From Psammoneis japonica (Eukaryota), in NCBI GenBank assembly GCA_008632985.1, contig QPGO01000096.1, forward strand, positions 186,001-250,000: a stretch of 64,000 nt of DNA, written 5' to 3'. Shown here in pieces: positions 4,299 through 51,549 of the stretch (the stretch's first letter is position 1; every line of letters starts with the position of its first letter). The notes beneath the pieces are model-generated. The model searched no databases. It had not been told where the DNA came from and was given only the letters and a program-made list of their open reading frames with translations. Made by a program: the position numbers and the translations under genes.

Positions 4299-4399
4299 AC
4301 CAACAGAAGAACAGACCCAAAAAGTGCCATCATTTTTCACCACCATTCCCAGTCTGATGCTTTGCCAAAATGTTGCAGGATCTTTTCACAGAGCCAGTC

Positions 4400-15781: not shown

Positions 15782-16062
15782 GAGTGACTCGGAGGGAGTG
15801 ACTCGCTTGCAAACAGTTTTAGATTGGATGATTCCATGCTGCTTGGCACTTTAGTTTCTTTGTTCGATGCTGCTCTAGATTCCATGCCGGCATTGCTCTG
15901 GGTTGTTTGTTCAACAACACTCTAGATTGGACACTGCTCCAGGATCTTTGTTCAGCGCAACTCTAGATTCGACACTGCTCTGGGTTCATTGTTCAATGCC
16001 ACTCTAGATTCGACAATGCTCTGGCACCAGTGCAATCATGCAGTGGCATTGTTGACTCTAGA
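15782..16062. repeat. Dispersed repeat with GAGTGACTCGGAGGGAGTGACTCGCTTGCAA end and tandem CTCTAGATT sub-repeats (mutated copy)
   Basis: The reverse complement of 15782-15825 matches 55750-55793. Sub-repeats such as ctctagatt...gctct.ggtt..ttgttca are shared. Confidence 0.75.
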
Positions 16063-16145
16063 GTGTCTGTTTTTTTTTTTTCCATGTTGCTGGCATCCAT
16101 CCCAATGAAGATCCACACACGATGGCATGGTGCAAATGCCGCCCC

Positions 16146-16937: not shown

Positions 16938-17016
16938 TTTTTCTACAAAGGAGCTTGGCGCGTTTCTACGTTGTGGTGAGAGCAGAATTTCTTTTGTGGT
17001 GAGAGCAGAATCTTGT

Positions 17017-18010
17017 GGTCTTCATCCATCATGGTTGAAGATTTGCTCGGTTGGGGTGAGATTCATTTGAATCGCAGCTCGATTGGCTTGCACGCTGTCT
17101 TGTCAGCACAATGACCCAAGGATGTCAAATTGCACAAACCCATTCCTAAAATGATGATCCATGCCCCAGGTGCAGCTCTCAAGACTTGATGCATGCATCT
17201 GTTGGCTGTGGTGCAAGCTCCTCCTCAATGGATTGATGCTGGGGCACAAGTCGCAAGTTGTGCAGCTCATTTTGTGGAAATGTCAGACAAAAGGGGAGCA
17301 GCAGGAGGGGTGCCCTGAACCTGGCCAAAACATTTGTGATTGCAGGCCTTTGTTGGCACAGCAGCCATGTTGACAGGGGCATTGATGGTTGTCCAGTTGA
17401 TGCATTTTTTGGGGTTGTCCACAGGGCTCTCTGGGGCCTCTGGACATTCAAGTGCTGGAGCCATCACGGTCAGAGAAAGCTTTGATTTTCCCGTGCACAT
17501 GATTGATCTCCTCAGCATGTTGTGGTGTTTCAAAATTTCTTTTGTGTTGGAAGAAAATGGGAACCCATCTAATGCCAACTTGGCAATGTGTCTGCCTTGC
17601 TCAGATTCCCGGTGAAACATGCTGTGGCGTGTGACTTGTTCACACTCAGACAGCACAGCATGGCAGTGTTCAGACTTGCACTTGGAGCAAATTGATTGGA
17701 GAAGGAAGAATTCATCCAACTTGTTTTTTTTTCAAAGAACAGCCAATGACTTTGCACAGCCCACTCTGCAGCTGAGACAGGTGTTTTGTTGGATCAGCAA
17801 ACAATGCACTTTGGGTGCCTGGATGTTTTTGCAAGCAAGGAGAGTGATTTGTTTTGACAGAACAATTTCAGAAACCCCACCCAAAATGCTTGCAGCATTC
17901 ACAAATCACCGTTGCTAGAAAGGGCCAGAGTGGCAACCTTCCATCAGCAAAACATTTGCCCGCATCTTGTGTGCAACACAGCGAGTGCTCTTAAAATGCA
18001 GCGAACAGCA
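17017..18010. repeat. Segmental duplication copy B, part distal to the transposon
   Basis: Colinear with 729-1790, with indels and many transitions. Confidence 0.8.
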
Positions 18011-21000
18011 CAAAGAATTTTTTGGTGCTGAACAGAGCATGGGAACAGCAGGTTGCATTTTTGCAGTGGTGAGTCAACAGAAGCTGAAAGGCAAATTCTC
18101 AACATGCAAGCAAATCTGACATCTCACGATTGAAGCTGTCGAATCTGCACAGTCCAACACAAAATTGCATCTTTGCTGACACACACTCCCACAACAAAAA
18201 ACACGCAGCCCAGGAGGATTGCTGCCAGCCATGGAGTGTCAACATTTGGCCACTGCACAAGTTGAGTTGCCCTCAAACACAGCTTTGTGCCTTGCTTTTT
18301 GCAGCAGTGTCTTGAGAAAAACTTTTAGAACATGCGCCGGGCATCCCTGTTTGTTTTTCACCTGGCATCTGTCATCTGTCATGTCCTCTGTCATGAGGTC
18401 AGTCAGGCCAGTCTTGTGATGATGGCCACATTTTGCACAATCCATGGCAGCTGCCTGCCAGAAACCCCCTGCGTGGGTTTCTGAATGTGCTCACGCACTC
18501 ATGTCACCCTTCTCAGATGGCATTTTGCTGGGTCTCCCAAGATTGTTCGGGCCATTTCGGTCAATGGCGCGCCCTTGTTTTGGCACATCAAGCAATGTCA
18601 CTCAGTGGAAAATGGCTGGCGTTGACTCCTTGTGGGTCACATGCGCTCGTCAATCTTTTTTGTCATTTCTGCAGATCCAAGAAATTTTCCACATGGATCC
18701 AGCACAAATTCTGCATGCTTCAGCAAACACAGTGCCGGCAAAAATGCTTTGTCAATCTTTGAGCTTCTTGCTGTGCCAACACTCTTCTGTCTTCAACGAC
18801 CCTCTTTGCTCCTGTTGGCCAATCAAGTCTTTCACTCTGTGGGGTGAAAATGCTGCTTCTGTTGAGGCGCTGACAAGTGTGAGTGCAAGCCCTCCTTCCT
18901 TTGGCATCAATTGGCCATCTTCCATTTGCTGTGTGCATCCGTTGGCATTTCCGTGCAAGATCCAGAGTGGTTTCTGCATGTGAAAAATGTTGTTCCTGAT
19001 GACTGACTCATCATCACATCATCAAGTGCTCCCATTTCTCCTCATCTCCCAGTCTTGGACAACCCCTCCCTCACTTGCTGGCAAATCAAGCTCCCTGCTA
19101 CATGCAGCAATCTTTTTGCCATTGTTGCATTTCTTGGAGGTTGCAATGTGGCTCCTTTCTTGATGAGCAACAGCCAGTGGCTTGACAATCACATTTTGCT
19201 GACTTCCTTCCCTTTGCTGTTCCCAAACCAAATTCTGAGAGCAGCAGCTGTTCTTTGCTGTTCTGGCATGGCAAGCACATCTCCAGCCCACATGAAAGCA
19301 ATGATCTCCTCAATGTGTTGCTTCACCATCTCCATTTGTCTCAGGTGGGCGCATCCTCTTTGGAGGGCACTGCACTCAGCCAATTGCATGAGCAAGCAGC
19401 TTCTTCTGCCACACTCCTTGCAGAGTGCACCAGAAGTGTGGGTCAGCTGGCGCACCTTGTTGCCAGGCAAAGGTGCAACAGCACACAAAACTGGGGCTTT
19501 TTTTGTGATGGTGGCCATGTGTGCAGCCTTCTTGTGGGTGGGCACCAAATGTTGGGGCAGTCATTTCTTCATTTGCCACATGCCCCTCCATTGCTCCATT
19601 GGATGGTTTGTTGTTTTGCTTTTTCACAAAGTTTTGACAACATTTCATGAGTCACACTGTCCCTTCTTGTGGTGTGCACTTCAGCATGTCTGCTCCATGA
19701 CCTGTTCTCAACTTTGAGCTGAGCCTGATGTCTGACAAGTTCTTTGTTTGTTGTTGTGACACAGCATGACAACCAGCTGATGGCAATGTTGAGGTTGAGA
19801 TCAAGATTGTTGAACTCATCAATCTGTCTGGCTGTCCACATTGCAAGGAAGTGGCTCCCAAGCAAGAAAAAAGGCGGCCCTTGTTCAGACAGTGGCTTTT
19901 GGTGTGTCAGATTGTTTCGCAGCACCTCATTTTTGTTTGCTCCAAAATGTTGTGTTTTTGCTGCTGAGTCATCAAGTTGTTGTTGGAAAGAATGCTGTTG
20001 CCAACTGTGCATCATCACATGGGTTTGTCTGAAGCACTCGCTGCAAACACAAAGTCCTGACAAAGCAAGTGTTCACTGTGTCCCTCATCATTTTGGAAAT
20101 GGTGGAACACATGGGATGTCCAGGGGGGGATTGTTGTCACAACTTTGATCTGAGATCAGGCTTGATGATGTGTGCAATGGGCATGTGCATGTGTGCCCTG
20201 AAGTGGAGCAGAGCAGCAGCACTCCACCAGATGGCTTTTTTGGCTTGAACCTGAGCCCTTGAGAGAGAAGTTGTGAATCATGGCAGATCATCAGTTGGCC
20301 AAGATCTGCAAGAAACCTCTCAGATTGACCAAGGAAGCAAGCAAGCAACTTGGGAGCTGAGAGGAGCATCTGGCATTCCATCAGCAGCCCTCCATTCCCA
20401 TTCTCAAAATGCTCTCATTGCAATGCCATGATCAACGATGATTGGATCACCAACAACAGGGTGTGTCAGTGTTGTCCAAAAAGTCATGGTCAAATGAATC
20501 AACTTTTTGCTGACTTTGAACAGCGAAAGTCAAAGCCACTCACAGTCAAAAGTGCCGACAAATGCCAGAGTCAAAAGTCAAAGTCAGGCAGTCAGCTGAA
20601 GATGAGTCAAGTCAACTGGCAGCTGCAGCCAGTCACATCTCATGGTGTTTGGTTTGTGAACTGACTGACGTGCATCACTTGTCAAGGCCATCTGCAACAA
20701 CTTGCTTCTGCTCTTGACAAGAAGAAATCTGAGCAATTCATTGCACAACTTCCACAAGACATGTGACAATTGTGGAAAAATTGACTCAGGCTCTTGTTGT
20801 CAAAATCAAGACCCATTCCCACCCAGACAATTTTGGCCACAAAATTCCCGTGTGGCAGTTTTGAGGTGCAGCCACCAGCATGTGTCAAAATTTCAAGGGA
20901 GTGCAACACCGCTGAGTGGGTGCCAAATGCTGAGACCCACCATTGGCCAAGCGCGTGTGTTTTTCCAAGCTTTTGGCAAGCATCACAAGCTGACATCAGA

Positions 21001-22330
21001 TTGCATCAGACCTGCAGTGCCCCTGGGACACTTCCACCAAGTTGCTCTTGCACACACACACATCATTGGAAGTTTGGCTTGCTGACCACACGTTGGCTCA
21101 CATTTTGGGGTTTCTTCTTGTGAGTGCACCCCAGCTTTGGGTGGGACCTTGCGCTGCTGAGCTGTGACATTGACAGTTTTTTGGATCATGCTGCATGTCA
21201 TGCACACATGTTTCTGTGTGACTTCAGCATCATTTTGTGGCATTTTGTGGCAAGGACTGAGATGAGCGCACACAAATTTGAAGTGGTCAGCCCCACCTGC
21301 TCATGACTCAGTGCTTTGCCATGGTGAAAATTGCTCAGGAGGAATCTGACGATGACAAAAATGGTCAGAAAACTTCTGCTCACAACAATGTCAGCTGCAT
21401 GGAATTTGCATTCTTTGTTCGTTGGTGCCTCAATTTCTGACTGTTTTGCGCATCACGCAGAGCCACCATGGCTTTGTGTGCAATGCAGTGCTTGGTGTTG
21501 TTTTGGCAAAGTTTGGCAAAGCAACTGGTGCATGCAATGCTCAAAGTTGTCAATTCATGTGTGAAAGAACAAGGAGTGCACATTGCATGCAGCAGATGTT
21601 GTTGTTGGTGGTGTGGTGGAAGTCATCTGACTGGCGTTTTTGTCATTGTCAGACTCCTGCCGCAATTTTCACTGTGGGAAAGTGTTGGGTCATGAGTTGG
21701 TGGGACTGACCTCTTCAATGAGCCACACACTTGACTTGGCCCTTGCACTCATTGAGCGGTCCATCCAACAACTTTTGACATTTTTTCAGCGCGATTCTCA
21801 AATGTCTTCAGAGTCATGCAGGGCAGGTGCATTGGCAAAAACTTCAAGTGGCAAGAGGCACAAATGTGCCACAAACTTGGTCATTCATTTTGAAGACAAA
21901 CACATCCATTGGTTAAATTCTTGCACCATGGAGCTCACACTCAGCATCTGCAGGCCCAATGTCACATGTGCCTGGGGCTGAAAAACGTGTCTTGGGGCAA
22001 AATGACGAGCTGCAACAACTCTGAGACCACTTCACACAATCCAGCTGTCACTTTGGCTCAACTCTGCTTGAGTCTTGAGTGGTGTTTCACAAACATTTCT
22101 CAGATTCTGGCACCTTTTCTGAATGTTTTGGCTGGCACAGTTTTCCAGTGTGCCGCAGCTGCCCAACGATGAGGACAAATGGCACTGCTGCTCCTGCAAA
22201 GACCCTGCCCCTGTGACAGAGCTTTGGACAAGAGAACAGAGGGCTCTGTTGTGCTTGGTCACTGACTTGGGTGATGTGTTGGAACAAACCACACCAAGAG
22301 CCCTCTCTGTCGACTTGTCTGAGTTTTTTT
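18010..22330. other. Old degenerate repeat-derived DNA lacking both TpA and CpG; origin not identified
   Basis: Almost no TA and very few CG dinucleotides over ~4 kb. Overlapping Cys/His-rich ORFs occur in all six frames. Confidence 0.6.
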
Positions 22331-22559
22331 GTCAGTCAGTCGCTCGGCAGTCTTTTGCGTTTTCGACGGTTGGCGTAAACTGCATGCAGGAATTGGCAAC
22401 ATTTTTGAAAGCACTGAACTCCCACGAATCTTCCACACGCCAAATCATGGCATCAATTCTGCCATTGCACACAAAAGTGACAGTGATTGAGAAATTTAGC
22501 AACGGTCACGACACAAACAGCCAATCTCAAAATCTGCGCTCGTTTCGATCTCGATCCCA

Positions 22560-22856
22560 CAACTCGTCGTCTCGCACGATGTGTTTGTTGTTTGCCAAGC
22601 CTGAATGCCGTCATCGCCAAAGGATGGCTCGCCCTTCCTCTGGATTGAGACCTTGCATTTGTTTGGCATTCCACAACTCATTTTGCTTGATGGTGTGTTG
22701 TCTCTCTTTTTCAACTCGTCGTCTTGCACGAGGTGTTGTTGTTCGCCAAGCCGGAATGCCACGACACCCAAGGATGGCTCGCCCTTCCTCTGGCTCTGAT
22801 TGCCTGCTCTTGTTTGGTGTTCCACAACTCATTTTGCTTGATGGCGTGTTGTCTCA
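22560..22856. repeat. Tandem duplication, unit ~150 bp
   Basis: caactcgtcgtct.gcacga...aaggatggctcgcccttcctctgg...ttccacaactcattttgcttgatgg occurs twice. Confidence 0.8.
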
Positions 22857-23086
22857 AATGGCAGTGCAGGTGTCGCCAGTCAAGTCCAGAGGTCGGGGCA
22901 AATCGAGTGTGTCTCTCCGGCCTTGAGTCCGTGTCACTCTTGTGTCTTTGAGTGCAGGAAGTTGCCTGTTCGCTTGACCCAGAAGGGTCACGGCTGTTGA
23001 AACAGACAGCAGCGTTCATCTGCGAAGCAGCAAAAGCTTGCCAAGCAGATCATGCCGCTGACGGAACACAGGTTTGGGGTTCCGTC

Positions 23087-23558
23087 AGTCGTGGTTCGTC
23101 TGTCCACTGACCCAGATTCTCTGTTGTGTCTGTGCTTCCGTCAGTCGGAATTCTTGTTGAAATTCTTTTCACGCCACATCGACTCGATTCTCAAGCCGAA
23201 TGCTTTGGGGATCACAGGCGGTGCTTTGGAGATCACAGGCTTTGCGTGGATGTTGGACCAACCATGGATTGGTTCAGCAGCACTTGGATGATTGTTGTGA
23301 ATGTGGTTGACCCTGAAGTTTGTGCTGGTCTCTAGTGCAAACCTGCGGATCAACCTCTGTTTGGGTGCATTCAGCAGATTCAGTCTGGGCAGCTTGTAAT
23401 TTGGTCACTGGCACTTTTGTGAAAGACCAAATGCTCGTTGCTGCTTGTCAGCAGATTCCATCTACTTGCATTCTGCCTGAGGTGTCGATCTGGAGTGGAC
23501 ATCCAATCGATGCGTTAGGAAGGCACTCGGAGCTTGCGTGGACACGCGAGCTTCGACT
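23087..23558 (+). repeat. 5' LTR (AGTCG...CGACT)
   Basis: Aligns without gaps to 31276-31747. Confidence 0.95.
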
Positions 23559-23561
23559 GGT

Positions 23562-23579
23562 TGGTTCGCCCAATTGGGG
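23562..23579 (+). promoter_or_regulatory. Putative primer-binding site
   Basis: TGGTTCGCCCAATTGGGG begins 3 nt after the 5' LTR and starts with TGG, complementary to a tRNA CCA end. The cognate tRNA was not identified. Confidence 0.5.
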
Positions 23580-24101
23580 CAACTTAACATGTTCTACACT
23601 TCTGGTTGGGGACGCCCAAACCAGAGCAACCCTGTCAATGGCTCTGATGCCATCAGCGCTCCTCATCAACTGCGCTCCGTGCTCTTGACATCAAGTGCTG
23701 CGACTGACTCCGTCAGCTGAATGGCTGGTTCCGCCAGAAGGTTCATTGTTGATTTTGCACGTCCACCATCTCAGGTCCTGCTCCAGATGCATTCCAGCCC
23801 TGGGTGGGAGCTCGCAGTGCTGACGTGTGACAACAACAATTTTTGTCATCTGTCGCATGTTTCGCACGTAGATTTCTGCATGTGACATTTAAAAAAAATT
23901 GTCCAGACTCACTGTTTTGCGAAGCCCCAGACGTTTTATGTGACAAATTTATAGAAACAACAATGCGCCAGTTACATTCTTCAATGTCTGAAGAATGTAA
24001 CTGGCCAAGTAAAAAATGATGTGCTTCAATCATGTGCGAGTTTGTGCGTTCGCAAAATTGCCTCATTTTCTGTTGGCGATCATTGACACTTTAATTGCCG
24101 T

Positions 24102-26450
24102 GTGATTTTACTGCGGAGCTCGCACGCAGAAGTCTACGGGCCCAATGTCACACGGATTCCCACCTGCGTCTGGAACGCGTCTCCACCCCATGGCCCTCCT
24201 GAGACCCAAGAGAGTTCTCCAAGCTTGCACTCTTTGATTGAGAACGTCCCAGACGATTGGTCTGACTCGATGGCTTCAAGCGCGCTGTCGGACATGGCTG
24301 ACGACCCCGAAGTGTTCGAGGATCAGCCTCCTGAGGATCAACCTCCACCGGGGGATGATCCACCACCTCAGGACCCTGACGACCCAGACAACTGGCCTGT
24401 TCCACCCTTGGAACTTTGCCCGGACGATTCGGATGACGACTCGGACGATGATGATGATGAGCCCGCTGCAGGCTCCGGCATGTCGGAAGATGAGCGTCGC
24501 ACCGTTCAGGCCATGGCTGCCATGGCAGCCGCGGTGATGCCGAAGACGAAAGTCTGCAAACCCAAGGCTCCCAAGATGGGGGGGGTTGTCTCCATTGGCT
24601 CTGCTGAGAAAGTTGCTTGGACCGGTGGGAAACCCAAGGCTGACTGGTCCAGATTGGAAACTCCCAACTCCAGTCCAATGTCACCAAACCAGCATCGCTC
24701 CCACCACGTTTTTTCTGCCCAGAAGAGCAAGGCCCACCGCGTTGCCGGACTTTCAACCAAGTTTGATGAGAAGGGAGATCTTGCAACCTTTGAGAAGAAC
24801 GTGATGAAGCATCTCAAGGACTGCGGTTTGGATGTGGCAACTCACCTGCAGGACCCCGAGGACTCAACTTCTGTGACGTCTTGCGTTGAAGGACATCCTC
24901 GGTGTTCCAAATCGAGCGTCGCCCATCTTGTCGCACCTCAACTCACCAAGTGTGACTCCTGCGATTCATCCAATGACAGGGACACCACTGAGTTTCTCAA
25001 GAACTCCTTGGAGGCTGGCCCAGTCGTGCAGCTGGATCTGGAGATGGAAGAGTCGGATTGCTTTCCGAAAGTCTGGATGGCTCTCGTTGTGATCCTCCAG
25101 AGCACGTCCATCGAATGCTTCAAGCAGCTCGAAAAGCAGCTGGAGGAACTCAAGCCCTCCCAGTTCGCCGGTCAGGATCTCTCCCAGCTCCCACCCAAGT
25201 TCAAGACTGCGGCCCAAGAGTCAGATGTTGCGGGTCAGTGCGACCACAAGCCAATGCTTGCCTTGGTCAACGCTTGCCTGGAAGCTGGCGGGGATGGTGA
25301 AAACGGTCAGCAGTTCAAGCATGCCCTTCGCACTGTCAAAGAGAATTTGAGCGAAGCACTTGTTGAGACAGTGCACAAGTCTAAGATGGACACGAAATGA
25401 CACCTTGCGTCCAAGAACCTCACCTGCTCTCAAGTCATTGGGAAGATCCTGGACCGCTGCCACTTGTTCAAGAACAACATGCAGTGGGATCCTGTCAAGC
25501 ACTCGACAGACTCCAAAGCTGCTCCCAGAGCCTTTGGAAACCCAGTGCTTGATCCCTCAGCCACTTGTCAAACGGTTGGAGTTCCACTCACTCAGGCCCA
25601 GTTCAGTGCTCTCTTCCAGCAGACAACTGCTCCCCACAAGAAGACTCCGGACAACTCTCCGTGCAACAACTGCGGCAAGCTCGGACACTGGGCACGTGAC
25701 TGTCCCAACAAGTCCAACGAGGGTGCTGGAAACAACCAAGGCGGCTCAAACCCTGGGCAAAATGGTGGAGGACAAGGAGGAAGGGGCAGGAACCGCTCTG
25801 GTGGCAACGGCAGTCAAGGTGGCAATGGAGGCAACGGTGACGGTGGCGTCACGTGCAACTGGAAGAAGGTCGCGCCTCGTCCCGGACAACCTGAGTCCAA
25901 GGTTGCTCAATGCAGCATGCATGCAGACAAAAGGTCATTTTTGTCATGCCCTTTGTGACATTTAAAGGCTGCAACACGTCACCGTGACACATTGACTCTC
26001 ATCAGTGGCTGTGTGTTGCACTCCTCCCCATGTGTCACGCGTCCATGCGGCTCTTTACTGATGTGTGCTGACACTGCACGGTTTTGGCGGAACAGTGTGG
26101 GTGTGTGCGAAGGAACACACAGAACTGCACAGAGTTTTGCGCATTCGACAGTGATCAACGTTGCTCCAGACAACTCCCACTCAGGGTTTCGAACCCCTGG
26201 CCTCCTGCCTGATGGTTGCGATGAACCACTCCGCTGTGAATTCATGATGCAGCATGCATGCAGACAAAAGGTCATTTTTGTCACGCCCTTTGTGACATTT
26301 AAAGGCTGTGACACGTCGCCGTGATGCGTTGACTCTTGCCAGCAGCTGTGTGTTGCATCAGGGCAAGACTTGGCACTGGTGTGCCAAGTGCCGTCGTTGG
26401 TCCACCACTCGCGGTGCTGCCAAGCATGGGCAGAAGGATGAGTCACCTCC
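24102..26450 (+). pseudogene. copia gag with zinc knuckle, frameshifted and interrupted by a TRIM-like insert
   Basis: AWTGGKP motif; CNNCGKLGHWARDC (CX2CX4HX4C); GKTWHWCAKCRRWSTT resumes after the insert. Confidence 0.85.
25911..26357. mobile_element. TRIM-like mini-element: 110-bp direct repeats around a 227-bp non-coding core, nested in gag
   Basis: 25911-26020 and 26248-26357 are gap-free direct repeats with TG...CA ends. Flanks TCAA/TCAG form an imperfect 4-bp TSD. Gag reads ESKVAQ|GKTW across the site. Confidence 0.7.
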
Positions 26451-27228
26451 CGTGCCGACTCAGCAGGCCAACACCCTCTTCCTGGATCCTGGAGTGTGGC
26501 ACGCGGAATTCGACTTTGAGCTGGGATTCAAGGATGCACTGCTTGGACCATCTCAGGTTGTGCTCACCTTGATCCACCCTTTTGCATCTCCGCTGCTCTG
26601 TGCTGCCTTGGGACATTGGTGTTCTCAGCTTCCGGCCAACTGGTGGATTGCTGGAGTCGACGCCATGATCTGGTTCATGGCGGTCATTGCGTCGCACATC
26701 TCGTCACATTGGCATCTCTGTCCTTTGCCCGCTGTCTGGTTCCTTCTGCTTCTAGCGGCTGTGTTCTTGCCGTCTGAGTTTGAGCGTGATGCTCGTGCCA
26801 AAGCCCTGCGTGCTCCTCCTCCACCCCCTCCCCCTTGCTGGGCCACACGCCAAGGAACCAAGTTCTCCAAGTGCCGTGAACATTGGGGGCGTCATTGCCT
26901 GCGGGAGCTTCAGCCTTGCTGCGGACGCCGCCACACTCCACCCAGGCACCCCTCTCTCGTTCAACGAGCTCGTGGGGTGCCTGATGTCAAGCAGCGGCAG
27001 CGCAATCAGTTGCACGACCTCAGTGAAGAGGTCAAGGCCTTCGAGCGGTCACTCACCTTCATGCGCGCACGTCCTCTCCTCGGTTGAGAGGGAGAAGCCG
27101 GTCATCCCAAGGGCACCAGACGTTGCAAGAGTGCCGCTCTAAAAAGGGGTCCCGACACTCGTCATCGAGGTTGTCGAAACCTCAATGCACCCACGTGTCA
27201 CCCTGTTGGTTCGAACGCTGCGCACGGT

Positions 27229-30200
27229 TTGACGCGCTCCCAGCTTGACGCCATCTGCTCCCCAGCAGCCAAGGCTTGTCTTGCCAATGCCGACGTCCCG
27301 TCACCTCTACTTTCTGTTGCTGGTGCTCTCAAGGCGGCATTCACAAGTCCCAAGGAGACAAAGGAGGTGGTTAAAGAGCACACCTTCCCGGTCATTTGGG
27401 ACTCAGGAGCAAGCGCATCGGTCTCACCTTGCAAGAACGACTTCGTCGGGCCTCTCGAGAAACCACCTGTCGCTGTCCGGCTCCAAGGTGTTGCAAAGGG
27501 GCTCCATGTGGCAGGTGTTGGACATGTTGCTTGGTCTTTTGTTGATGTTGCTGGGGTGCTTCGGACCCTGAAGGTTCTGGCCCGCTACATCCCCAAGTCC
27601 AAGGCTCGTCTCTTGAGCACGACCAGTCTCTTGCAGACGCACTCGGATGAGTCCATCAAACTGCTGTCGGACCGCACCATCCTCAGTGGATCCAAGAATC
27701 GTGAACAAGGACACACAGGCGAGGTGTTGAAGTGTTGATTGAACCTTCAACTAACCTGCCAGTTGGATGGGCCTGTGCGAATCAAGCAAGTCAACAAATT
27801 TGTGAGGAGTTTCATTTGACGTTGTCGACGATTGTGGAACACAATCACAATGTCTCACCTGCTGAAAAGGAGCCACTGCGCTGGCACTTTCGTCTCGGGC
27901 ATCTGAGCTTCCGAAAGGTGCAATTTTTGATGCACACGGGAGTTCTGTCCCACTCCGAGGGCACCCGTCATTTGCATGAACGTGCTTGTTGCATTGATCG
28001 TCCGCCCCTTTGTGCCGCATGCCAACATGGAAAACAAAAATGCCGTCCCAGCCCCGGAAAGACTTCTCGTGTCGTCAAGGATCGAGCTGGAGCCTTGAAG
28101 AAGGATCAACTGTTCCCCGGTCAACGAGTTTCGGTTGATCATTTTGTTTGTTCCACTCGTGGTCGTCTGAAACACACTTTTGGAAAGGAGAGCATAAAAC
28201 ATCAGCATTCAGGCGGAGCAATCTTTGTGGATCATGCATCTGGTTGTGTCAACGTTCAACATCAAACTCACCTTGACACCCATGAAACTTTGACGGCCAA
28301 GAACGCATTTGAGGCCCATTGTCGTGATCATGGCATCATTCCCCAAGAACATCTGAGCGACAACGGAAAGGCATTCACGTCGGCCAATTTCAGGGTTCAC
28401 TTGGAATCTTTTGCTCAAGTTTCAAAGCATGCCGGTGCAGGAGCTCACCATCACAATGGGGTTTGTGAACGAGCAACACACACCGCGATGTTGATCGCGA
28501 GAAGCATGATGTTGCACACGGCGATCCATTGGCCTGATGTTGCGGACGTCACTCTTTGGCCTTTGGCTGTGGACCATGCTGTCATGCTTTACAATGCGAT
28601 GCCAGACCCATCTGCGGGTCTCAGTCCACAGGATGTGTTCACCCAGACGCGTCATCCTCACTCTCGGTTCCAGGATTGTCATGTTTGGGGGTGCCCTGTT
28701 TGCGTTCTTGACAAAGCCCTCGCCGATGGAAAGAAACTGCCAAAGTGGAAACCCCGCGTGAGTCGGCATGTCTGTGTGGGATTCAGCCCCGAGCATGCCT
28801 CGTCAGTCCCACCAGTCTTGAGTCTTGAAACGGGAGCCATCACTCCACAATTCCATGTCATTTTTGATGATTGGTTTGCAACGGTTCCTGCCAATGCTGG
28901 CTCATCACCTGCCATTGGGTCTCCGGAATGGACGTCTCTTTTCGGAGACAGTGTGCATCAACACACCATGGATGATGAAGAGCAGGCTGATGTCAACATC
29001 CGTCAAGAACACCCAGAATGTGAGCGCCAATCCAAGGAAATCCGCAAAACCGTCACCCGCCGGTCGCCTCCCAAACCCTTGCAGGTCCCTCCTCCGGCTG
29101 CTCAGGCACCAGTGTCTTCTCCCAAGCCCCCTCGAGTCCCACTGTGGAACCCCCGGTCCCTGAGGTGGAGTCTGTGCCTCCATTAGAGTCTCCTGCTGAA
29201 CCCGTGGCTTCAGACTTGCCTCAGAGGGAGAGAGCACCCGCCGCCAACTCAAATGCCCCACCAAGTCCTCAGAGGGAGCCTCCTGCCCCTCAAAGTCTTT
29301 CTTCGGATCTCGGTCAAGAGAGGGAGTCACCACCTGTGGCTCCACCCAGCGCACAACGCCCCTCTCCAACCCCAGTTCGTCGCTCAACCCGGACTCACGC
29401 TGCACCTCAGCGGTTTGGACATGATGGATCTCAGGGACACGGATGCTTGTCCCACTTCATTGATTTCCATCATGCACACAAGTTTGACCACGGTTGCAAC
29501 ACATCCATGACCACTCCTGCCGTGTGCAAGGCGTCGGCGCGTAAAGTCAAGGATCCGGGTGCGCCATCGTGGGACGAGGCCATGCGCTCTTCCGATTGCG
29601 ACAAGTGGTTGAAAGCGGCTGAGATCGAGATTGCAGCACTTGTCCATCAAGGAACGTGGATCGAGGCACCCATGTCCAATGCTCAAACCAAGATCCTTCC
29701 CGGCACTTGGGCATTTTGTCGCAAGTGATCACCTTCAGGCGAGATCAAGAAATGCAAGGCTCGCCACTGTTGTCGCGGCGATCTGCAGGAAGGAAGTCTG
29801 TTTGACACTTGTGCACCGGTTGCAGCCTGGAGCACGGTTCGAGTGTTTTTGGTGTTGAGTCTTGTTCTTGGATGGCACACGGCATCCGCCAATTTCCAGT
29901 CTGCATTCGTTCAAGCAGCACTTCCCGCAGAAGAACCAGTTTGGGTTCATCTTCCACGAGGTTTCAGCTCGACGAAAGGACCCAAGACTTGTCCCAAGCT
30001 CGTCAAGAGTCTCTGTGGACTCTCTTTGGCTCCAAAGTTGTGGCACGAACATTGTCCACAAGCCTTCTTGGACTTGGGTTTCATCCAAAGCGAGTGCGAC
30101 CAATGTCTCCTGCTTTGCCATGATTGCATGGTCTGCCTGCATGTCGACGATTGCGGGATCAGTGCAGCGCAGGAGTCCACCATTGATCAGCTGACATTTC

Positions 30201-31129
30201 AGCCACGCGAGAAAGGATTTGATTTGACAAAGGAGGGCAGTTTTACCAAGTTCTTGGGTGTCAAGTTCGAAAGGAGAGACGATGGTGCCATCAAGTTGAT
30301 GCAGAAAGGGTTGATTGACAAGATCCTGTCAGCAACCGGCTTGGTTGACAGCAAACCAAACTTGCTCCCTGCGGCGTCCCAAGCCCTCGGCACTGATGCG
30401 GACGGAGATCCCATGCAGGAGGAATGGAGCTGTCCCTCCATCGTTGGAATGCTCCCATGCTTGTCCACCAATGCCCATCCTGACATTTCCCTCGCCATCA
30501 GTCAGGTTGCATGCTTTGGTTCCAACCCGAAACAGTCGCGCTCAACCGCCGTCAAGACTCTGGTCCGCCACTTGAAAAGGATGCATGATCAGGGGATGCT
30601 GCCATCTCCAACCGGTTGTTTGGATCTTGATTTGTGGGTTGATGCCAATTTTGCTGGTCTCTGTCGCTGCGAAGCGGACTCTGATCCGAATTCTGTGAGG
30701 TCATGCACCGGACACATCACAACTCTCAGTGGATGTCCTTTGGTGTGGAAATCGCAGCTCCAGTCGGCTGTTTCCTGCTCCACCCTCAAAGCTGAGCATC
30801 AAGCCGCCTCCCATGCTCTTTGGACTCTCCCACCTTTGAAGAACCTGCTCCTTGAGATCGTCTTTACCTCAGACATCTCCCAAGATCTCAGGACTTCGGT
30901 TCGTGCGCGCATGTTCGAAGACAATCAAGGTGCTTGCCACCTGGCTGCCAACCACCGCATCACCAATCACACCAAGCATTTTCTCGTCAAGTGGCATTGG
31001 TTCTGGTCGCATTGTGATGAGTTTGGTGCAATTAAGGTGGAATCGGCCGAGCAACTCGCCGATTGTCTTGCCAAGCCTTTGACTCGAGAGCTCTTCCAGA
31101 ACAACCGGTTGAAGGTCCAAGGGTGGCAG
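27229..31129 (+). pseudogene. copia pol (protease, integrase, RT, RNase H) with frameshifts and systematic Tyr->Cys/His
   Basis: PR: VIWDSGAS. Pre-integrase: WHFRLGHLSF. IN: VSVDHF, SDNGKAF, HHNGVCER, WGCPVCVL. RT: KCKARHC, KSLCGL, CLHVDD. RH: WVDANFAG, FEDNQGA, QLADCLAKPL. Confidence 0.95.
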
Positions 31130-31266
31130 CACTTTGGAAGCATCGCTTCCTTCATTTGTTGTGTGTTGTGGCTCGGTCAAGATGTGGGAGCTGTGCTCTG
31201 AACTTGCACCAATTGTGTGAGCTTTCTCGTTTGCGATTTTCTTGTTGGTTGCTGGAATCTGTGAAT

Positions 31267-31275
31267 GAGAGGGAG
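31267..31275 (+). promoter_or_regulatory. Polypurine tract
   Basis: GAGAGGGAG directly abuts the 3' LTR. Confidence 0.8.
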
Positions 31276-31747
31276 AGTCGTGGTTCATCTGTCCACCGAC
31301 CCAGATTCTCTGTTGTGTCTGTACTTCCGTCAGTCGGAATTCTTGTTGAAATTCTTTTCGCGCCACGTCGACTCGATTCTCAAGCCGAATGCTTTGGGGA
31401 TCATAGGCGGTGCTTTGGAGATCATAGGCTTTGCACAGATGTTGGACCAACCATAGATTGGTTCAGCAGCATTTGGATGATTGTTGTGAATGTGGTTAAC
31501 CCTGAAGTTTGCACTGGTCTCTAGCACAAACCTACGGATCAACCTCTGTTTGGGTGCATTCAGCAGATTCAGTCTAGGCAGCTTACAATTTGGTCACCAG
31601 CACTTTTGTGAAAGACTAAATGCTCGTTACTACTCGTTAGTAGATTCTATCTACTTGCATTCTGTCTGAGGTGTCGATCTGGAGTGGACATCCAATCGAC
31701 ACGTTAGGAAGGCACTCGGAGCTTGCGCGGACACGCGAGCTTCGACT
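31276..31747 (+). repeat. 3' LTR (AGTCG...CGACT); retains many more TpA than the 5' LTR
   Basis: Aligns without gaps to 23087-23558. Confidence 0.95.
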
Positions 31748-32634
31748 CCGTCGTATCAGTGACATGATATGGTAAGTCTTCACTCGTAGGGAGTGTTGAT
31801 TTAGAACGCGGTTGACTCGCAAGTTTACTTGTCGTCTCCGTAGTACGTCCCCCCTTTTTCTTTTTTTGGGATGGTGATCCACCCCGAAAATAGGAAAAAG
31901 CTTGAGCTCCATCTTTTGATGGCGCTCTTGAGGCAACGTTACCCTGCGCTACCGATTTCTACATCAACTTTTGACATTGGTGTGTCTCAAATTTTTGAAA
32001 CACCCTTTGAAACCTTCACAATAGAAGTAGAAAGACTCTAAAAGTACACTGCAGCAATCTTTATTTTCGTGTAATTCATTCCGTACGTATGTCAAATGGA
32101 CTGCGATGACGGTCGTAGCGCTTGCGATGTCGTTGCGTACTTCCTTGCCTCTAGAGTAGAGTCCACGCCGGGTTATTCGTTACGGTATGCCCCGTCGTCG
32201 ACACATGCTGGACTATTTCGGCTCTGCTTGCCTGCTTGCCACAACATTCAACAACTTGAACAGAAGAGTAGCGACTTGAACAGAAGAGCAGCAAAAGATG
32301 GTAAACGATAAAGGATACAGTATTTCGTTATTGAGCATTAACATCGCTAGTTTCGAATTTCGATTCCTTCATCATACCGGTAGATCCATCAACGACCGAT
32401 ATAGCTTCTCCTTCTTCATGCTGCGCTTGAAGAGAACCGTCGTCACTACACTTGCACAACATACCACAAGCCCACTTGCGAGCGCCGCCCCTGCACTATC
32501 GCGTCCCCTACGATATACTCCTCCTCCGCCAGCGTTGTCGTTGGCGATGTCCCTTTCATTCTTTTAGCCTACGAACTCTCTAGAGCCCAACTCTCAACTC
32601 CTGGTGCCATTGTATTCAAGCTCTCTCACTACCA

Positions 32635-33745
32635 TCAACTCCTGGTGTTTTGATTCTGCGCCGCAATCAAACGAGCTGCTCGCATGTCTTCACGAACCTG
32701 ACGACAACGGTGACCGGCATCACTCTCAAAGACCCCCAAAGCCACTGGCATCCAGTCGTCGAAACTAGCTATGCGTCGGTCGTGAGAAGGGTGAGTCGAA
32801 ATGAATTCTGGAGGCTGCGCTCCCTTTGCCCCCTCTTTCATCGCTCTGGATATACCGACATTGGAAGAATAGAGGCAGTAAGCAGAGGAGCAACGCACAA
32901 GATAGCACAAATACCACTGTACGAAAGCAAACAACTTACGCAAAAACACGTTTGGCAGCACGTGGATCATAGCAAGCCTGAGCAGCCAAGAATATTCCAA
33001 TTTGATCCGCCTCGGTTTCAGCTTGTCTAGAATTAGGAAGCTCTTGCAGCAACTGAGCTGCCGGGAGAAGTATGGACGACAATACCCCTGAAGGATCCAC
33101 TAAGAACAACAACCGAGCAGCGATATTGACAACAATGGAGCCGCTCATTTTTTCGCCAGCATGGCGCGCAATTCCATGAGCTAATTCATGTCCCAACACA
33201 GCGGCCAACTCATCTTCGTCTCGAACGTATTGGAAAAGGCCCGTCATGACAAACACATGGTTGTTGGGCAGAACAAAGGCATTGACCATGTCGGAACGCA
33301 CAACTGTGAAAGTATACGGAGAAGCCGAAAGACTTGCAGTAGGGTGGGATTGAGCAAAGACTCGAGTAGCTCCAATGAGACGTTGGCCGACTCGCTGAAC
33401 CGTCTGACTAGCAGGGTGCTGCGGCGGCAAAATAGCTCCACGAAACTGCTGAAGGAGCTTCTTGTACTCCTGATCTCCCAATTGCCGTTCAAAAGCAGGT
33501 GACGTTGCTATCCAACGCTTTCGGTCTGTAAGGGGGGCTTCCTCCAGAAAGGCATAGTATCCATACACCAACGTCCCAGTCACACCCACAGCGGGTAACC
33601 AAACATATGCGGGCAGCGAAGAAGATGTGCTACTACCTCGACCGCTGCTCTGCCGGGAACTCGACAGAAAAGAGGACGGTAAGCGGCTTCGACGCTGAGA
33701 AGAAAACAAACGGCGACTGCTGCCATACATCATGGTGAATGCCAA
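32635..33745 (-). CDS. OMA1: OMA1-like mitochondrial metallopeptidase (peptidase M48), two exons
   Basis: NAFVLP, ELAAVLGHELAH, SRQAETEADQIG and PEFISTHPS motifs. A GTAAG...CAG intron at 32939-32846 joins the two ORFs in frame. Arg/Ser-rich N-terminus. Confidence 0.85.
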
Positions 33746-34323
33746 AGATATACCGTACTGTATCTAACGAAGTAAAAAGTATCGCGGTCTCATATCCACC
33801 CACCGTGAGAGGTCGGACTGTTCAGTTGCCTGCCTAATCCATTGTCCTCAACTTTAACAGCAGCAAGACTTCGGCTTCCGCCGAGGAACGTGTGCAGACG
33901 GCGAATCATGATGAGACGATACACTTCAACAGAGCGATTTTTAGGTATCTAAATAGCTGCGTTTGCCAAAGATTCCATGGAATCTTTTTTATGTTGATCC
34001 TCAGCGCACACCTATTCCCGCCAATGGAATCTTTGATCGTGGTGTCAAGTCGACTTCAAACAAGTTGCGGCTGCAAAGGACGACGGGCTAGAGTTCGAGT
34101 CCTTGCAACTATCAAAACGAAGTCAAAGCTACTGTTGCAACAAAGCAATGACAAAAAAGGCGCCAAATTCAAAGTGGTATTCTCTTTCTCTAGAGGCTAC
34201 AGAAGGTTGTTTTCGGCCTGAGCACACTGGCTATCAACCTTCCGCCATTTCGTATTGAATACAAAGAGCGCAATAGTTTTGATTTTGCATATCTTGTTTT
34301 ATATTCAAGTCATGAGCACCATT

Positions 34324-35554
34324 TCACTTCAAGAAAAAGTACGCGCCACAGGCCAAACCAATAGCACCCTGTACTAGAGCCGCCACCGCGTGCCCCCCTG
34401 CACCGTCGCCTCCGCCACTTACCATGGCAAATGTCTCGACTATAGCTCTTACCGAAAAGAGTATAGTTCCCGCCATGGCTGCTTGTTTGACGAGATCGCC
34501 GCTTACAAGCCTCATCATGGGATCAGCGTCCATGGCTTCTTTTGCCTTTTTCAAGTCGGCCACAGCTCGTTCCACCTCTTGCGTCTCTTTGTTTACGTTT
34601 TCGAGAACTTTTTGCATTGACTCTTGCGCTTGTTGCATTCTTATTTCATTCTCCTTTTCTGTTGCCATGCGCTCCTGAGATGACTTTTCCGCGCTGGCTT
34701 TGGCTAATTCAGACTGTACATCACAAGTAAAGGAGTAAAACAAAAAAGTTGTGAGGATAAACGCAGCAGCGCAATCACCATACTGGCACATTCGTTACCT
34801 GTTCTTTACGAATTTCATCTAGACCCTGCAAAAGCTCTTCGTTGGCCTTGTCAAAGACCCCTCTAATTTCAGCCATCATGTCTTCATCATCCAGTATATT
34901 TTCAGAGAGCGAGGAGATCTGTTCCGGTGTCTTGTCCTTAGCTTCCTTCATCGCTTGTTCCAAAGCGGCATTCATAAAATCCTCCATGTTGTTCCCTTTG
35001 TCAATTGTGCTAATGGGTGGAGTAGTTGCAATTTCCTCTGAAACCGATTTGGGAGATTGCTTTACAGTCCCGCCCATGTCCTGCAAAACCTCGGAATACA
35101 GCGCTTCTCCCTGTTCGTCGCCCTGAAGATCTTGATATAATTCAGTATATCGTTTGATTTCCTCCTCCGGCGCTACATTTGGTGCCTTTCCTTTTAAATC
35201 TTCCTTATCAACGCTTCCCTCAATGTCTTTGCGAAGCTCGTCGTCCTTCAATGGACTATCATCATCAAGATCACCCAAGGAATCCAACGCATCCAGTTCT
35301 CGAAAGGCTTGCTCCATGCCCTTGTCGACGTCTTCATCCTTTTCTTTTGCAGACAGAAACCAGCTTCTGATGGAAGTATTTTTTCTTAATGCATGTTTCG
35401 GTAATCTTTTGACCACCTGAGACTTTACAGCATAAGAAGGAGCACGCCCTCGAGATGACGAAAACGCAAAGGCGGCCGTCACTGTTGAAAGATGAAGCAG
35501 AAGAGACAGAACAAGCACATTGATGGGGGTAGTATTTCTGCTTGAATCACTCAT
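34324..35554 (-). CDS. Unknown, probably plastid-targeted coiled-coil protein with two C-terminal hydrophobic helices; two exons
   Basis: Signal peptide ending TVTAAF. A GTAAC...CAG intron at 34798-34714 joins KEQ|SEL in frame. Confidence 0.75.
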
Positions 35555-36047
35555 TCTAGAACAAACAAAACTAGAGAGAAAGTCAGAAGATACAATCGTT
35601 CTGAGATGGGACTGAACAAAAACGCTTTTGTTGTTCTTGCAGTCGCAGCACTTATTGTTGATGTTTTCTGATGCCTGCTTCGATTTTTTGTGATTTTTGG
35701 AATTTGTGATGGCTGTTATTGTTTCGCGGCGGCCGCGGTGTCAGACACAGACGGGTGGGTACTTCAACACCTCATGACCTGTTGAAAAAAGAAAAAATCA
35801 GGTTCTTTTTCTTTTTTTGAAATTTTGACCAAACTCAAAATCACGACCTCGCACGGATGCGCACAGCACGATACGAATCATCAAAACAAAAAAAACCTAA
35901 AATCACGCTTCCACAGCACGAATGCAGAGCCTATTATCATCGCGACTCTCCTCAGTGCCGTTTTTACAGAACGAAAGAGCAATCGCTTTATTATCAACAT
36001 AAGGTAGCCATATCTGACACTTCCTTGAGCAACCACAGACCCAAAAA

Positions 36048-37045
36048 ATGGTTTCATCGTTGGATACACTGGCTGACGAGCTTCTCTGTAAGCTATTCGA
36101 GTGGGTTCCTCCAGAGGAGCTGCTTCTGTCTGTATCCCTTGTCTGCAAGCGCGTTTTCGTGCTTACAATGCAAGAGACATTTTGGCGCAGATATCCCTTG
36201 TTTACCTCCATAACCACGAATCAGCATTTGACGCTGAACCAGATGCAACGTTGCTGTATTTGGGCGGGAGTAGCAAAGGACTCAAGAATAAGCGACCCTC
36301 CTTCTTATCTCGGTGTTGGGTCAGTTCTCCTTGCCAAAGAGACCGCCAAAGACACGCCGTTTCGACGTGTTCATGGATATGTGTGTGCGGCCTCATCGAC
36401 GCACAACGGAACTGAAACACTGGATAATGTGTTACCGTCGTCTCTGGGGGAGGAAGACAATCGTCGGTCAACACTGAGACACCTTTTTGGATACAGGGCC
36501 GACTGGTGGAGTTCAGCGCCTTGTCCGTCACAAGACTCTTCCGAGGTGCTTCTTTTTACAACGAAGTATCCAACCGCTTTGATTACCAGAGTTTGCATTA
36601 GGCCCTTGATCGATCCTTTTCTTCGAAACGTCGTGTACACGTGGAGAAAGACAGTTATCCGAGCGTATCACGTTGCAACCACGTTTCAGCCTTTCAAATA
36701 CCCTTCCTTTTCTCTTGGTCCTGATCACAAGCCTCTCTGTTTCAAACATGCCAGCACAGAAGCTGAAAATGGCATTCCTGACAAGGACACTATTGATGCT
36801 TTGCTGCATGATTACGAGCCGGTCTATGAGTCGAAGGCATACAACGTTCCGGTAAACGAGGCAGTGACACGTTGGTGTACGACTTGCCCGGTGTTGTGGC
36901 CAATGTGGTCACGATTACTCTAGTTGGCAAGAATTATGAGCAATTTGAAGGCTCCGGACAGTACTACGCTTGCGTCAGTAACGTTGAATGCCTGGGCATG
37001 CCACTTCTCCCAACTCCCAACCACCACGTAAGGAATGAGATATAA
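36048..37045 (+). CDS. F-box protein, apparent frameshift near 36865
   Basis: N-terminal LDTLADELLCKLFEWVPPEELLLSVSLVCK. ASST and WWSS motifs. An alternate frame gives VVTITLVGKNYEQF...YYACVSNVECLG to TAA at 37045. Confidence 0.7.
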
Positions 37046-37199
37046 CGGATTGCTTCGTGGTACCTTCACTAGCGACCGCACTTACGACACATGTAAATAA
37101 AGTATTTTGTAGAACCATGCTGTAGAGTAAGAATGAGAAGACAGCTCTCTTGACTTTAAACACTGGTAAAACTCTCGCTAGCTACGGTAGTGCGGAGTG

Positions 37200-37573
37200 C
37201 TTGCCAGCTTCGCTTTTCGACGTGACTCGCTTCAGCAAGCTGCCATTGACAATGCATCTTCTGACTAACATTTTTGTGTTGTGGTGGGTGGACCGATGCT
37301 TGCAATTTGCCCATGAATTTCCAAAAAGATGTTGTGTGGTCTCCAGCACGTGTTTTGACCATTGCAGAGGGGGGCTGACACAGGCTGATTGTGTCTCTCC
37401 TGTCAGTTGCCATGAGTTGTTCTGGAAGCAGGCTTGTTCATTCAGAAAAGGCAGCTGCAAGGAAAAATCACCATCTTGGCTGGATTGCATGGCAACATTC
37501 ATTGCAAGGCTGTTGAATGAAAAAATTGAGTCAGTGTCTGCCCCCCATGAAGCTGGTCTGATTTGGCCACCAT

Positions 37574-37608
<35 letters not shown>

Positions 37609-51543: not shown

Positions 51544-51549
51544 CTGCAA

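Follow-up and report, generated by a model that had tools for sequence, protein, structure and literature searches.

Probable post-integration, domain-confined conversion of TpA to TpG and CpA in a copia retrotransposon of the diatom Psammoneis japonica

What kind of process leaves two copies of one sequence separated by transitions only, and mostly at the same dinucleotide? The question is raised by a Ty1/copia retrotransposon in a 64,000-nucleotide stretch of the diatom Psammoneis japonica (contig QPGO01000096.1, positions 186,001 to 250,000), hereafter the window, in whose coordinates all positions are given. A sequence-only reading of the locus had taken its two long terminal repeats (LTRs) as the record of a mutation spectrum directed mainly at TpA. 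Here, we consider it quite probable that, after the element had inserted, a DNA-level process confined to a chromosomal domain turned TpA into TpG or CpA within it.

The element occupies 23087 to 31747 and represents one insertion event with a true LTR pair. Both LTRs (23087-23558 and 31276-31747) are 472 bp long and aligned without gaps (repeat search, MAFFT, and a script check), and the element is flanked by a 5-bp direct repeat, CCGTC (23082-23086 and 31748-31752). Contigs of the public sequencing run X1 join 23080 directly to 31747 and omit 8666 bp, which corresponds to the element plus one copy of the duplication (8661 + 5); thus, copies of the flank without the element exist. With gag_pre-integrs and rve (27732-29186) 5' of RVT_2 (29843-31201), an LTR pair, and a 5-bp duplication, the element is a Ty1/copia LTR retrotransposon. 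No further copy of the LTR or of the element was found within the 64-kb window.

Between the 5' and the 3' LTR there were 34 differences, all 34 of them transitions, and 0 indels. Thirty-two of these fell in pyrimidine-purine (YpR) steps, which cover 228 of the 472 positions (binomial P = 1.2e-8), and only 2 were found among the 244 positions outside such steps. When the states are written as 5' LTR/3' LTR, TA stood opposite TG or CA at 15 sites (TG/TA 8, CA/TA 6, and TA/CA 1), TG stood opposite CA at 5 reciprocal sites, which account for 10 differences, and CG stood opposite TG or CA at 7 sites (TG/CG 3, CA/CG 2, and CG/CA 2). Equal states were TA/TA at 3 steps, CG/CG at 18, TG/TG at 40, and CA/CA at 26, so 66 TG or CA steps were common to both LTRs and unchanged between the copies. 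These numbers match those that the sequence-only reading had estimated by manual alignment (two 472-bp copies with about 34 differing nucleotides and no transversions or indels, divided into about 15, 5, and 7 sites and 2 outside). Altogether, 25 of the 34 differences fit a change of TA to TG or CA; CpG decay of the ordinary kind explains the 7 CG-versus-TG/CA sites, and 2 differences belong to neither class. Given a transition share of approximately 0.70, taken from two other repeat pairs in the window, 34 transitions out of 34 would have P of approximately 5e-6. In those two pairs, transitions and transversions number 29 and 12 (16 gap columns) and 48 and 22 (24 gap columns), an ordinary spectrum that the LTR pair does not share.

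The ancestral LTR was reconstructed by a simple rule: a step was taken as TA if either copy was TA or if the copies were reciprocal, and as CG if one copy was CG. The inferred ancestor contained 23 TA and 25 CG steps, of which 19 TA and 5 CG had changed in the 5' LTR and 6 TA and 2 CG in the 3' LTR. As a result, 4 TA steps remain in the 5' LTR (a TA share of 3.5%), and TA makes up 17 of 114 YpR steps (15%) in the 3' LTR. Conversion of TA reached approximately 83% in the 5' LTR and approximately 92% in the internal region. The process used both strands, with 13 TG and 6 CA among the 19 TA outcomes of the 5' LTR. A strand-run test on these 19 changes gave 7 runs versus approximately 9 expected, which was not significant and thus provided no evidence for long single-strand tracts.

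Conversion was also fast relative to the background. Loss of TA per step in the 5' LTR amounted to -ln(4/23) = 1.75, versus approximately 0.004 per background site per copy, which puts the rate ratio on the order of 100, an indirect value taken from the LTR pair. The change took place after integration and proceeded much faster than CpG decay in the same DNA. LTR dating is misled, as had been predicted from the sequence: the LTRs diverge at 34/472 (7.2%) of all sites and at 2/244 (0.8%) outside YpR steps, and whole-LTR dating overestimates the age of the insertion about nine-fold.

The loss of TA extends well beyond the LTRs. A three-state segmentation on YpR steps, together with dinucleotide profiles, was applied to the 64-kb window. 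Normal DNA was assigned to 2-851, 31322-37228, 43461-49429, and 55244-63992, with observed/expected ratios (o/e) in the last three of 0.58-0.61 for TA and 0.98-1.00 for CG (0.37 and 0.89 in the short domain 2-851). Domains that lack TA and keep CG were found at 856-2033, 5796-17093, 17910-18952, 22311-23858, 24143-31320, and 49431-55242 (TA o/e 0.04-0.10, CG o/e 0.30-0.75), and domains without TA and CG at 2037-5790, 17096-17907, 18954-22308, and 37233-43457 (TA o/e 0.01-0.05, CG o/e 0.09-0.15). In the last class, TG and CA make up approximately 96% of YpR steps; sampled parts (20000-20600 and 37429-38000) were single-copy at at least 85% identity, with a depth of 63-70. Both TpA loss and CpG decay seem to have gone to completion in these domains, which resemble old relics. 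From normal DNA to depleted domains, the YpR shares shift from.17-.18 to.01-.02 for TA, from.22-.24 to.20-.22 for CG, from.27-.30 to.38 for TG, and from.30-.33 to.39-.41 for CA. The gain of TG and CA matches the drop of TA, which indicates that the lost TA reappears as TG and CA. The borders are abrupt, for example, in the sequence at 37230-37270. The element and the two domains that meet at its 3' LTR are laid out as follows.

22311..31320, no strand: TA-depleted, CG-retaining domain stretching from the left flank through the 5' LTR and all of the internal region (TA o/e 0.05-0.09, CG o/e 0.67-0.73), broken only by the island 23863-24137
23082..23086, no strand: target-site duplication CCGTC, left copy (flanks read; empty-site joint)
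23087..23558, + strand: 5' LTR, 472 bp, within the TA-depleted domain (4 TA; 19/23 inferred TA steps now TG or CA)
23559..23585, + strand: putative primer-binding region (by position only, directly 3' of the 5' LTR)
23863..24137, no strand: 276-bp island of normal composition in the element (11 TA, CG o/e 1.21, hairpin-like inverted repeat)
24102..25400, + strand: first long open reading frame (ORF), gag role assumed (by position; no reliable Pfam match)
25910..26357, + strand: two 111-nt direct repeats (25910-26020 and 26247-26357) in the depleted domain (repeat search)
27229..29186, + strand: protease/integrase part in two frames (gag_pre-integrs E = 2e-9; Pol_BBD E = 1.3e-4 and rve E = 2.8e-4, both below the Pfam cut-off)
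29843..31201, + strand: reverse transcriptase/RNase H ORF (RVT_2 E = 6e-18; Tyr 0; YVDD now HVDD)
31263..31275, + strand: purine-rich tract, putative polypurine tract (sequence read, directly 5' of the 3' LTR)
31276..31747, + strand: 3' LTR, 472 bp, at the edge of the depleted domain (17 TA; 6/23 inferred TA steps changed, all to CA)
31322..37228, no strand: adjoining normal domain with Peptidase_M48 and F-box genes (TA o/e 0.61, CG o/e 0.98)
31748..31752, no strand: target-site duplication CCGTC, right copy (flanks read)

The first TA of the 3' LTR lies at 31322, where the segmentation sets the domain border. The TA share of the 3' LTR (15%) is near that of normal window DNA (17.5%) and falls within the range of 79 related copia loci from metagenomes (8.1-23.6%), and that of the domain around the 5' LTR is 1-2%. 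The 5' LTR thus lies inside the depleted domain and the 3' LTR at its edge, which accounts for most of the LTR divergence. With respect to the sequence-only reading, the spectrum itself (all transitions, mostly at TpA) held, with three corrections: seven of the sites belong to CpG decay, the process is domain-wide rather than a property of the LTRs, and the two copies were damaged unequally (19 versus 6 TA steps).

Normal domains contain host genes, with Pfam matches to Peptidase_M48, F-box-like, DUF716, Peptidase_M50B, BSD, and PAP_fibrillin (the last below the cut-off). Depleted domains contain the copia element, a unit bounded by 67-nt inverted repeats, and ORFs without a Pfam match. One exception is a TauE-like ORF (5562-6326, minus strand), the larger part of which lies in a depleted domain. 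For depleted-domain ORFs other than those of copia, Pfam yielded nothing credible even at E up to 0.5, and a homologue search with residues 380-1004 of ORF 6528-9542 gave no match. The homologues of ORF 52804-54549 yielded nothing credible in Pfam among 8 of 27 matches from the representative library. Most of the depleted DNA is not identifiable as to origin by Pfam and homologue searches. A total of 153 TA steps survive in 42.2 kb of depleted DNA, versus 868 in 20.6 kb of normal DNA. The survivors are enriched in TTAA, CTAA/TTAG, and CTAG, with nearly none in ATAT, GTAT/ATAC, and TTAT, which hints at a flanking-base preference, although the counts are small and some of these TA steps may be new.

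The direction of the change was read mainly from coding sequence. Tyr codons (TAT and TAC) always contain TA. The reverse transcriptase was aligned with 8 homologues (51-59% identity), and a column was called conserved when at least 6 of them had the same residue. Among 259 conserved columns the window agreed in 206; Tyr was retained in 0 of 11 and other residues in 206 of 248 (Fisher P = 1e-8). The 11 conserved Tyr residues had been replaced by His in five cases (CAT/CAC), by Cys in four (TGT/TGC), and by Trp and Leu in one each, including the change of YVDD to HVDD. All conserved Lys (10/10), Gln (9/9), Trp (8/8), and Gly (20/20) residues of this ORF were intact. Conserved Leu had changed to Pro four times (CCA three times, CCC once) and to Ser once (TCA); a single T>C change in CTA or TTA gives CCA or TCA, respectively, so that these two codons fit TA loss as well. 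Four conserved Arg residues, now His or Cys, reflect CpG changes. Compared with 120 homologues, the 10 columns with at least 70% Tyr read CHCCHWHHHC in the window. As a control, the M50B peptidase gene in a normal domain retained 8 of its 9 conserved Tyr residues. Its named homologues, with a best identity of 67%, are all from diatoms (Grammatophora, Seminavis, Pseudo-nitzschia, Nitzschia, Fragilaria, Thalassiosira, and Cyclotella), and among the relatives of the reverse transcriptase, the one named entry that comes from a cultured organism likewise belongs to a diatom.

Similar results were obtained outside the copia element. Tyr, His, and Cys made up 0.15%, 4.4%, and 4.2% of residues in 16 ORFs of depleted domains, versus 2.3%, 2.0%, and 1.3% in 10 ORFs of normal domains. 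When ORF 52804-54549 (minus strand), in a second depleted domain, was aligned with P0243, its only close homologue (34% identity over 561 columns), His or Cys stood at 7 of 11 aligned Tyr and Tyr at 0, as counted by eye. The duplicate of 1-728 (normal) at 5836-6565 (depleted) had 10 changes of TA to TG or CA in the depleted copy and 1 in the reverse direction, with 7 TA common to both, which indicates that duplicated host-gene sequence mutated while inside a depleted domain; this duplicate overlaps the TauE-like ORF. Between the 111-nt repeats at 25910 and 26247, both depleted, there were 12 transitions, 0 transversions, and 4 reciprocal TG/CA pairs. Among the 79 related copia loci, the lowest TA share (8.1%) exceeds that of the 5' LTR (3.5%) and no locus falls below a TA o/e of 0.33, which likewise speaks for TA as the original state. 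Thus, Tyr codons, domain composition, the duplicate, and the 111-nt repeats agree in supporting TA as the ancestral state and TG and CA as derived states, as the sequence-only reading had proposed; polarization by coding sequence and domains found no sign of the outcome that it had named as fatal, derived TA alleles. Foreign-origin composition or selection against TA was also considered as the cause and was rejected, as catalytic and conserved residues are destroyed.

In the mechanism that we propose, a Ty1/copia retrotransposon inserted into a diatom chromosome with two identical LTRs whose TA content was normal. A DNA-level process limited to a contiguous chromosomal domain then turned TpA into TpG or CpA by an A:T>G:C transition on either strand. 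The affected domain runs from the left flank across the 5' LTR and all internal sequence to approximately the inner edge of the 3' LTR; a separate, slower CpG decay, presumably by 5-methylcytosine deamination, produced the CG-versus-TG/CA sites. The putative enzyme would act on DNA at TpA, with adenine deamination (A>I, read as G) as the leading candidate and thymine oxidation followed by mispairing as the alternative; because the target is palindromic, the two chemistries leave the same sequence. Targeting may follow silent, foreign-DNA chromatin rather than sequence repetition. The process may serve as genome defense. The destruction of every Tyr codon and of the TAA and TAG stops inactivates the element without creating stops.

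A dependence on homology is not evident. The two LTRs were hit unequally (19 versus 6), and old depleted domains are single-copy when contigs are placed at 85% likeness. To the right of the element, bins with a word depth of 425 (32020-32620) and 192 (32621-33221), versus approximately 56 for single-copy sequence, have a normal TA content at their present copy number.

The closest known system is found in the chlorarachniophyte Bigelowiella natans. In mutation-accumulation lines of this alga, 231 of 302 nuclear mutations fell in integrated giant-virus and virophage regions (bioRxiv 10.64898/2026.01.13.699255, Mettrop et al., 2026). Of these 231, 230 were A>G or T>C, all of them on TpA, at a rate of approximately 6e-7 per site per generation, approximately 1000 times the background; only some lines were affected, and a single-copy region was hit. 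In the same preprint, TpA-poor coding sequences are enriched in reverse-transcriptase and DDE domains, and the authors propose an ADAT2-like DNA adenine deaminase. The text of the preprint, supplements aside, names no diatom, stramenopile, or LTR, and our full-text literature searches yielded no report of TpA hypermutation in diatoms or LTR elements.

As far as the preprint describes the B. natans process, the present locus resembles it closely: A:T>G:C changes at TpA yield TpG or CpA depending on the strand, they are restricted to foreign-derived regions with the remainder normal, and their frequency is far above the background. The trace left behind, TpA depletion with a gain of CpA and TpG in clusters that include reverse-transcriptase and DDE genes, is also alike. 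Judged from the sequence, the defining features of the B. natans type that can be tested in this way are present, namely A>G/T>C changes, confinement to TpA, and localization to foreign DNA, with the host genes in the normal domains. The two cases differ in that the host here is a diatom (a stramenopile) rather than a rhizarian, the best-documented target is an LTR retrotransposon, and depletion reaches TA o/e 0.01-0.10, versus 0.45 for the viral region. Unlike in B. natans, the loss is accompanied by CpG decay, its borders match element ends within tens of bases, and the evidence is comparative, not experimental.

Tentatively, and with somewhat more doubt than confidence, we suggest that diatoms and Bigelowiella may share an ancient TpA DNA-editing system spread across the stramenopile-alveolate-rhizarian (SAR) group. 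Such a system, directed by chromatin or small RNA, would recognize integrated mobile DNA almost to the base pair at element ends and would erase TpA, and hence every Tyr codon, while background divergence is still below 1%. A DNA adenine deaminase similar to ADAT2/3 or of toxin origin might act as its effector, or else a thymine dioxygenase, and the system would constitute a genome defense with a chemistry opposite to that of repeat-induced point mutation (RIP) and APOBEC.

An explanation that we regard as unlikely, though with a real chance of being right, is that the changes arise as a side effect of an epigenetic mark and not from a dedicated mutator. At TpA, transposon domains that are silenced would bear a modified base (for example, thymine oxidized to 5-hydroxymethyluracil or 5-formyluracil, or a modified adenine). 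Mispairing of this base now and then would let TpA decay in the manner of methylated CpG, but at a higher rate. The domains with TA loss are also those with CpG loss, and domain edges are partly depleted (6/23 TA steps lost in the 3' LTR; 10 changes in 5836-6565 with 7 TA common to both copies). In dinoflagellates, 5-hydroxymethyluracil is enriched in transposons, silences them, and replaces T preferentially in TA and TC (PMC11572971). Like the changes seen here, that mark concerns transposons of a SAR lineage; it modifies thymine, with a reported preference for TA and TC. It is an epigenetic mark, however, and the passages cited give no mutational consequence (PMC11572971). Methylated-CpG decay likewise turns a palindromic YpR step into TG or CA in silenced domains, and it is also present here (7 LTR sites; CG o/e 0.09-0.15 in the domains without TA and CG), but it cannot remove TpA, and TpA loss in the 5' LTR (19/23) runs far ahead of CpG loss (5/25). 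Against a mark that mispairs occasionally also speak the near completeness of the loss while the LTRs differ at 2 of 244 non-YpR positions, and the lack of any TpC effect, with only 2 differences outside YpR steps.

A sequencing or assembly artifact, in which modified bases in silent chromatin were misread and the TG and CA calls are errors at true TA, is very improbable. The pattern is bound to domains and specific to a dinucleotide, as base-calling errors at modified motifs can be, and the sequencing platform is not on record. The public run X1 shares 0.47 of the words of the window, and two further runs of the same sample share next to none; parts uncovered in runs X2 and X3 were not counted as evidence. 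Contigs of X1 placed at at least 85% likeness provided the depths, joints, and kinds of change. A 2087-nt contig with a word depth of 58.7 spans the TA/CG-free stretch 20000-21170 (1171 bp) with 1 difference, at the depth of single-copy genes (approximately 56). This contig is unbroken, which argues against strand-dependent misreads, as these would have fragmented it. Furthermore, the two LTRs carry stable, differing calls, and two copia reverse transcriptases from other public assemblies, P0060 (52% identity) and P0073 (49%), carry His or Cys in 7 of the 10 columns in which Tyr is conserved and keep Tyr in 1 and 3, respectively. Judged from these sequences, the same process may operate in other organisms.

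The same contigs allow a view of the family. Word depth in the element interior is 530-990, or approximately 10-17 copies at at least 85% identity. Comparison of 5845 contigs with the window copy revealed 973 places with transitions and 188 with transversions; reciprocal places are among them, for example 27935-27936, where the window has CA and other family copies have TG. The family copies appear to have been hit independently.

The classical direction, in which a RIP-like or methylation-driven C>T change at CpA/TpG and CpG made the TA alleles, mainly in the 3' LTR, is scarcely credible. Formally, C>T or G>A changes at CpA, TpG, or CpG could account for every difference, and RIP is described as giving transition-only repeat divergence (PMC2621366). 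This direction, however, leaves the loss of all 11 conserved Tyr codons and the almost TA-free internal region beside the 3' LTR unaccounted for, and the 5' LTR shows no gain of TA. It would also demand an ancestral LTR with a TA share of at most 3.5%, below the minimum among 79 related copia loci from metagenomes, in which TA makes up 8.1-23.6% of YpR steps. The resemblance to RIP lies in hypermutation in place by transitions only, inactivation of transposons, a dinucleotide signature, sharp borders, and inflated repeat divergence. RIP, in contrast, changes C:G to T:A, mostly at CpA, and creates TpA and stops, whereas here TpA is destroyed, TAA and TAG are removed, and GC rises. Fungal RIP was rejected as a class on this ground, TpA being lost and not created. 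RIP is triggered by sequence duplication and mutates both copies; such a dependence is not evident here, where the LTR copies are damaged unequally, and the repeated right flank, with its raised-depth bins, has normal TA and is untouched.

Editing before integration, by ADAR on element RNA or an APOBEC-like enzyme on cDNA, is almost certainly wrong: ADAR does prefer U before the edited A according to the B. natans preprint (bioRxiv 10.64898/2026.01.13.699255), and edited LTR elements are known in vertebrates (PMC4866542), but the LTRs share template segments, so that changes would be identical and yet 34 differ, both strands were hit in the 5' LTR (13 TG, 6 CA), and DNA that is not retroelement is affected too (the left flank, 5836-6565, and the inverted-repeat transposon-like unit). 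On the first two of these grounds, membership in the APOBEC/ADAR class was rejected.

Several points weigh against domain-confined, post-integration conversion of TpA as we propose it. The direction at the LTR sites was inferred from coding-sequence and domain arguments without an outgroup copy of the LTR. In the 3' LTR, 6 of 6 inferred changes are T>C on the plus strand (to CA), a mild strand bias. The TA model predicts approximately 2.5 reciprocal sites and a pure CG model approximately 1; 5 were observed, and these could derive partly from CG rather than TA. The 276-bp stretch within the element keeps its TA. Environmental copia relatives are without the effect (TA o/e below 0.33 in 0 of the 79 loci; TA o/e below 0.2 in 2 of 973 of their 1-kb windows and in 160 of 253 such windows of the present 64 kb), so related elements do not in general show the process. 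Run X1 may have been the source of the assembly itself, in which case the agreement with its contigs rules out an assembly or polishing artifact but not every platform artifact. The sequence does not distinguish a burst from steady accumulation. Finally, the enzyme, the chromatin-guided targeting, and the defense role are inferences from sequence.

Other observations concern the element and its surroundings. The copia element sits inside another repeat of about ten copies, as empty-site contigs have a depth of 605 in X1 and 90 in X2 and both flanks (22404-23086 and 31748-32620) have raised depth; in the window copy of this host repeat, the left part is TA-free and the right part has normal TA. 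The island 23863-24137 lies in a bin with a word depth of approximately 90,000 (approximately 1600 times single copy), and one contig of another copy lacks 23779-24186. A short, very abundant element may have inserted here later, and the hypermutation could then be dated by it; alternatively, the island may be a protected stretch. Two nucleotides at 27711 are missing from three contigs that represent other copies of the family (word depth 207.5 of 373.9 at this place). The reading frame changes at this point, from the protease-like ORF (27229-27738) to the integrase ORF (27732-29186).

A second candidate target is a 5.1-kb unit (50155-55250) between perfect 67-nt inverted repeats (50155-50221 and 55184-55250). 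The repeats have no TA, and every CG is intact and identical between the arms. The unit contains three minus-strand ORFs that are almost Tyr-free and have no Pfam match. The right border of its depleted domain (55242/55244) coincides with the right end of the unit, and the first TA follows at 55253. We regard the unit as a probable young DNA transposon that either underwent the same process or had no TA left by the time of its insertion.

With TAA and TAG lost, long ORFs overlap one another on both strands throughout depleted DNA; 41 ORFs of at least 80 aa occur in 23000-31800, and one of 1004 aa occurs at 6528-9542. At 11036-11238, a depleted domain carries a tandem repeat with a 54-nt period (95-nt copies, three of them overlapping, that are 85-92% alike), and a CTG triplet run at approximately 37570-37605 lies within 37566-37620, where mapped reads were cut. 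Run X2 omits 94 nt at 32846-32939 with CT..AC ends (GT..AG on the minus strand), beside the M48 peptidase ORF. Its depth is 79-201 in the bins 32020-33822 and 35626-37428, with none in the 24207-30817 bins except 26010-26610. This is a hint that X2 resembles an RNA run and that the depleted domain is transcriptionally silent.

Our literature search found one report of TpA-directed A:T>G:C hypermutation of foreign DNA, the 2026 preprint on a chlorarachniophyte. For practical work on such genomes, LTR-divergence dating is inflated, and hypermutated elements without Tyr, TAA, and TAG are missed by profile searches and give rise to long spurious ORFs that can mislead gene prediction. The LTR pair serves as a clock-controlled natural experiment, as its copies were identical at insertion; it indicates a process that acts after integration, on both strands, at TpA only, and at least approximately 100 times faster than the background. 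The sharp borders between normal and depleted DNA would mark where the targeting machinery stops, and chromatin or small-RNA maps could be overlaid on them. A trace at saturation in a diatom would place the process in a second, ecologically dominant SAR lineage, and whether it is conserved or convergent becomes testable.

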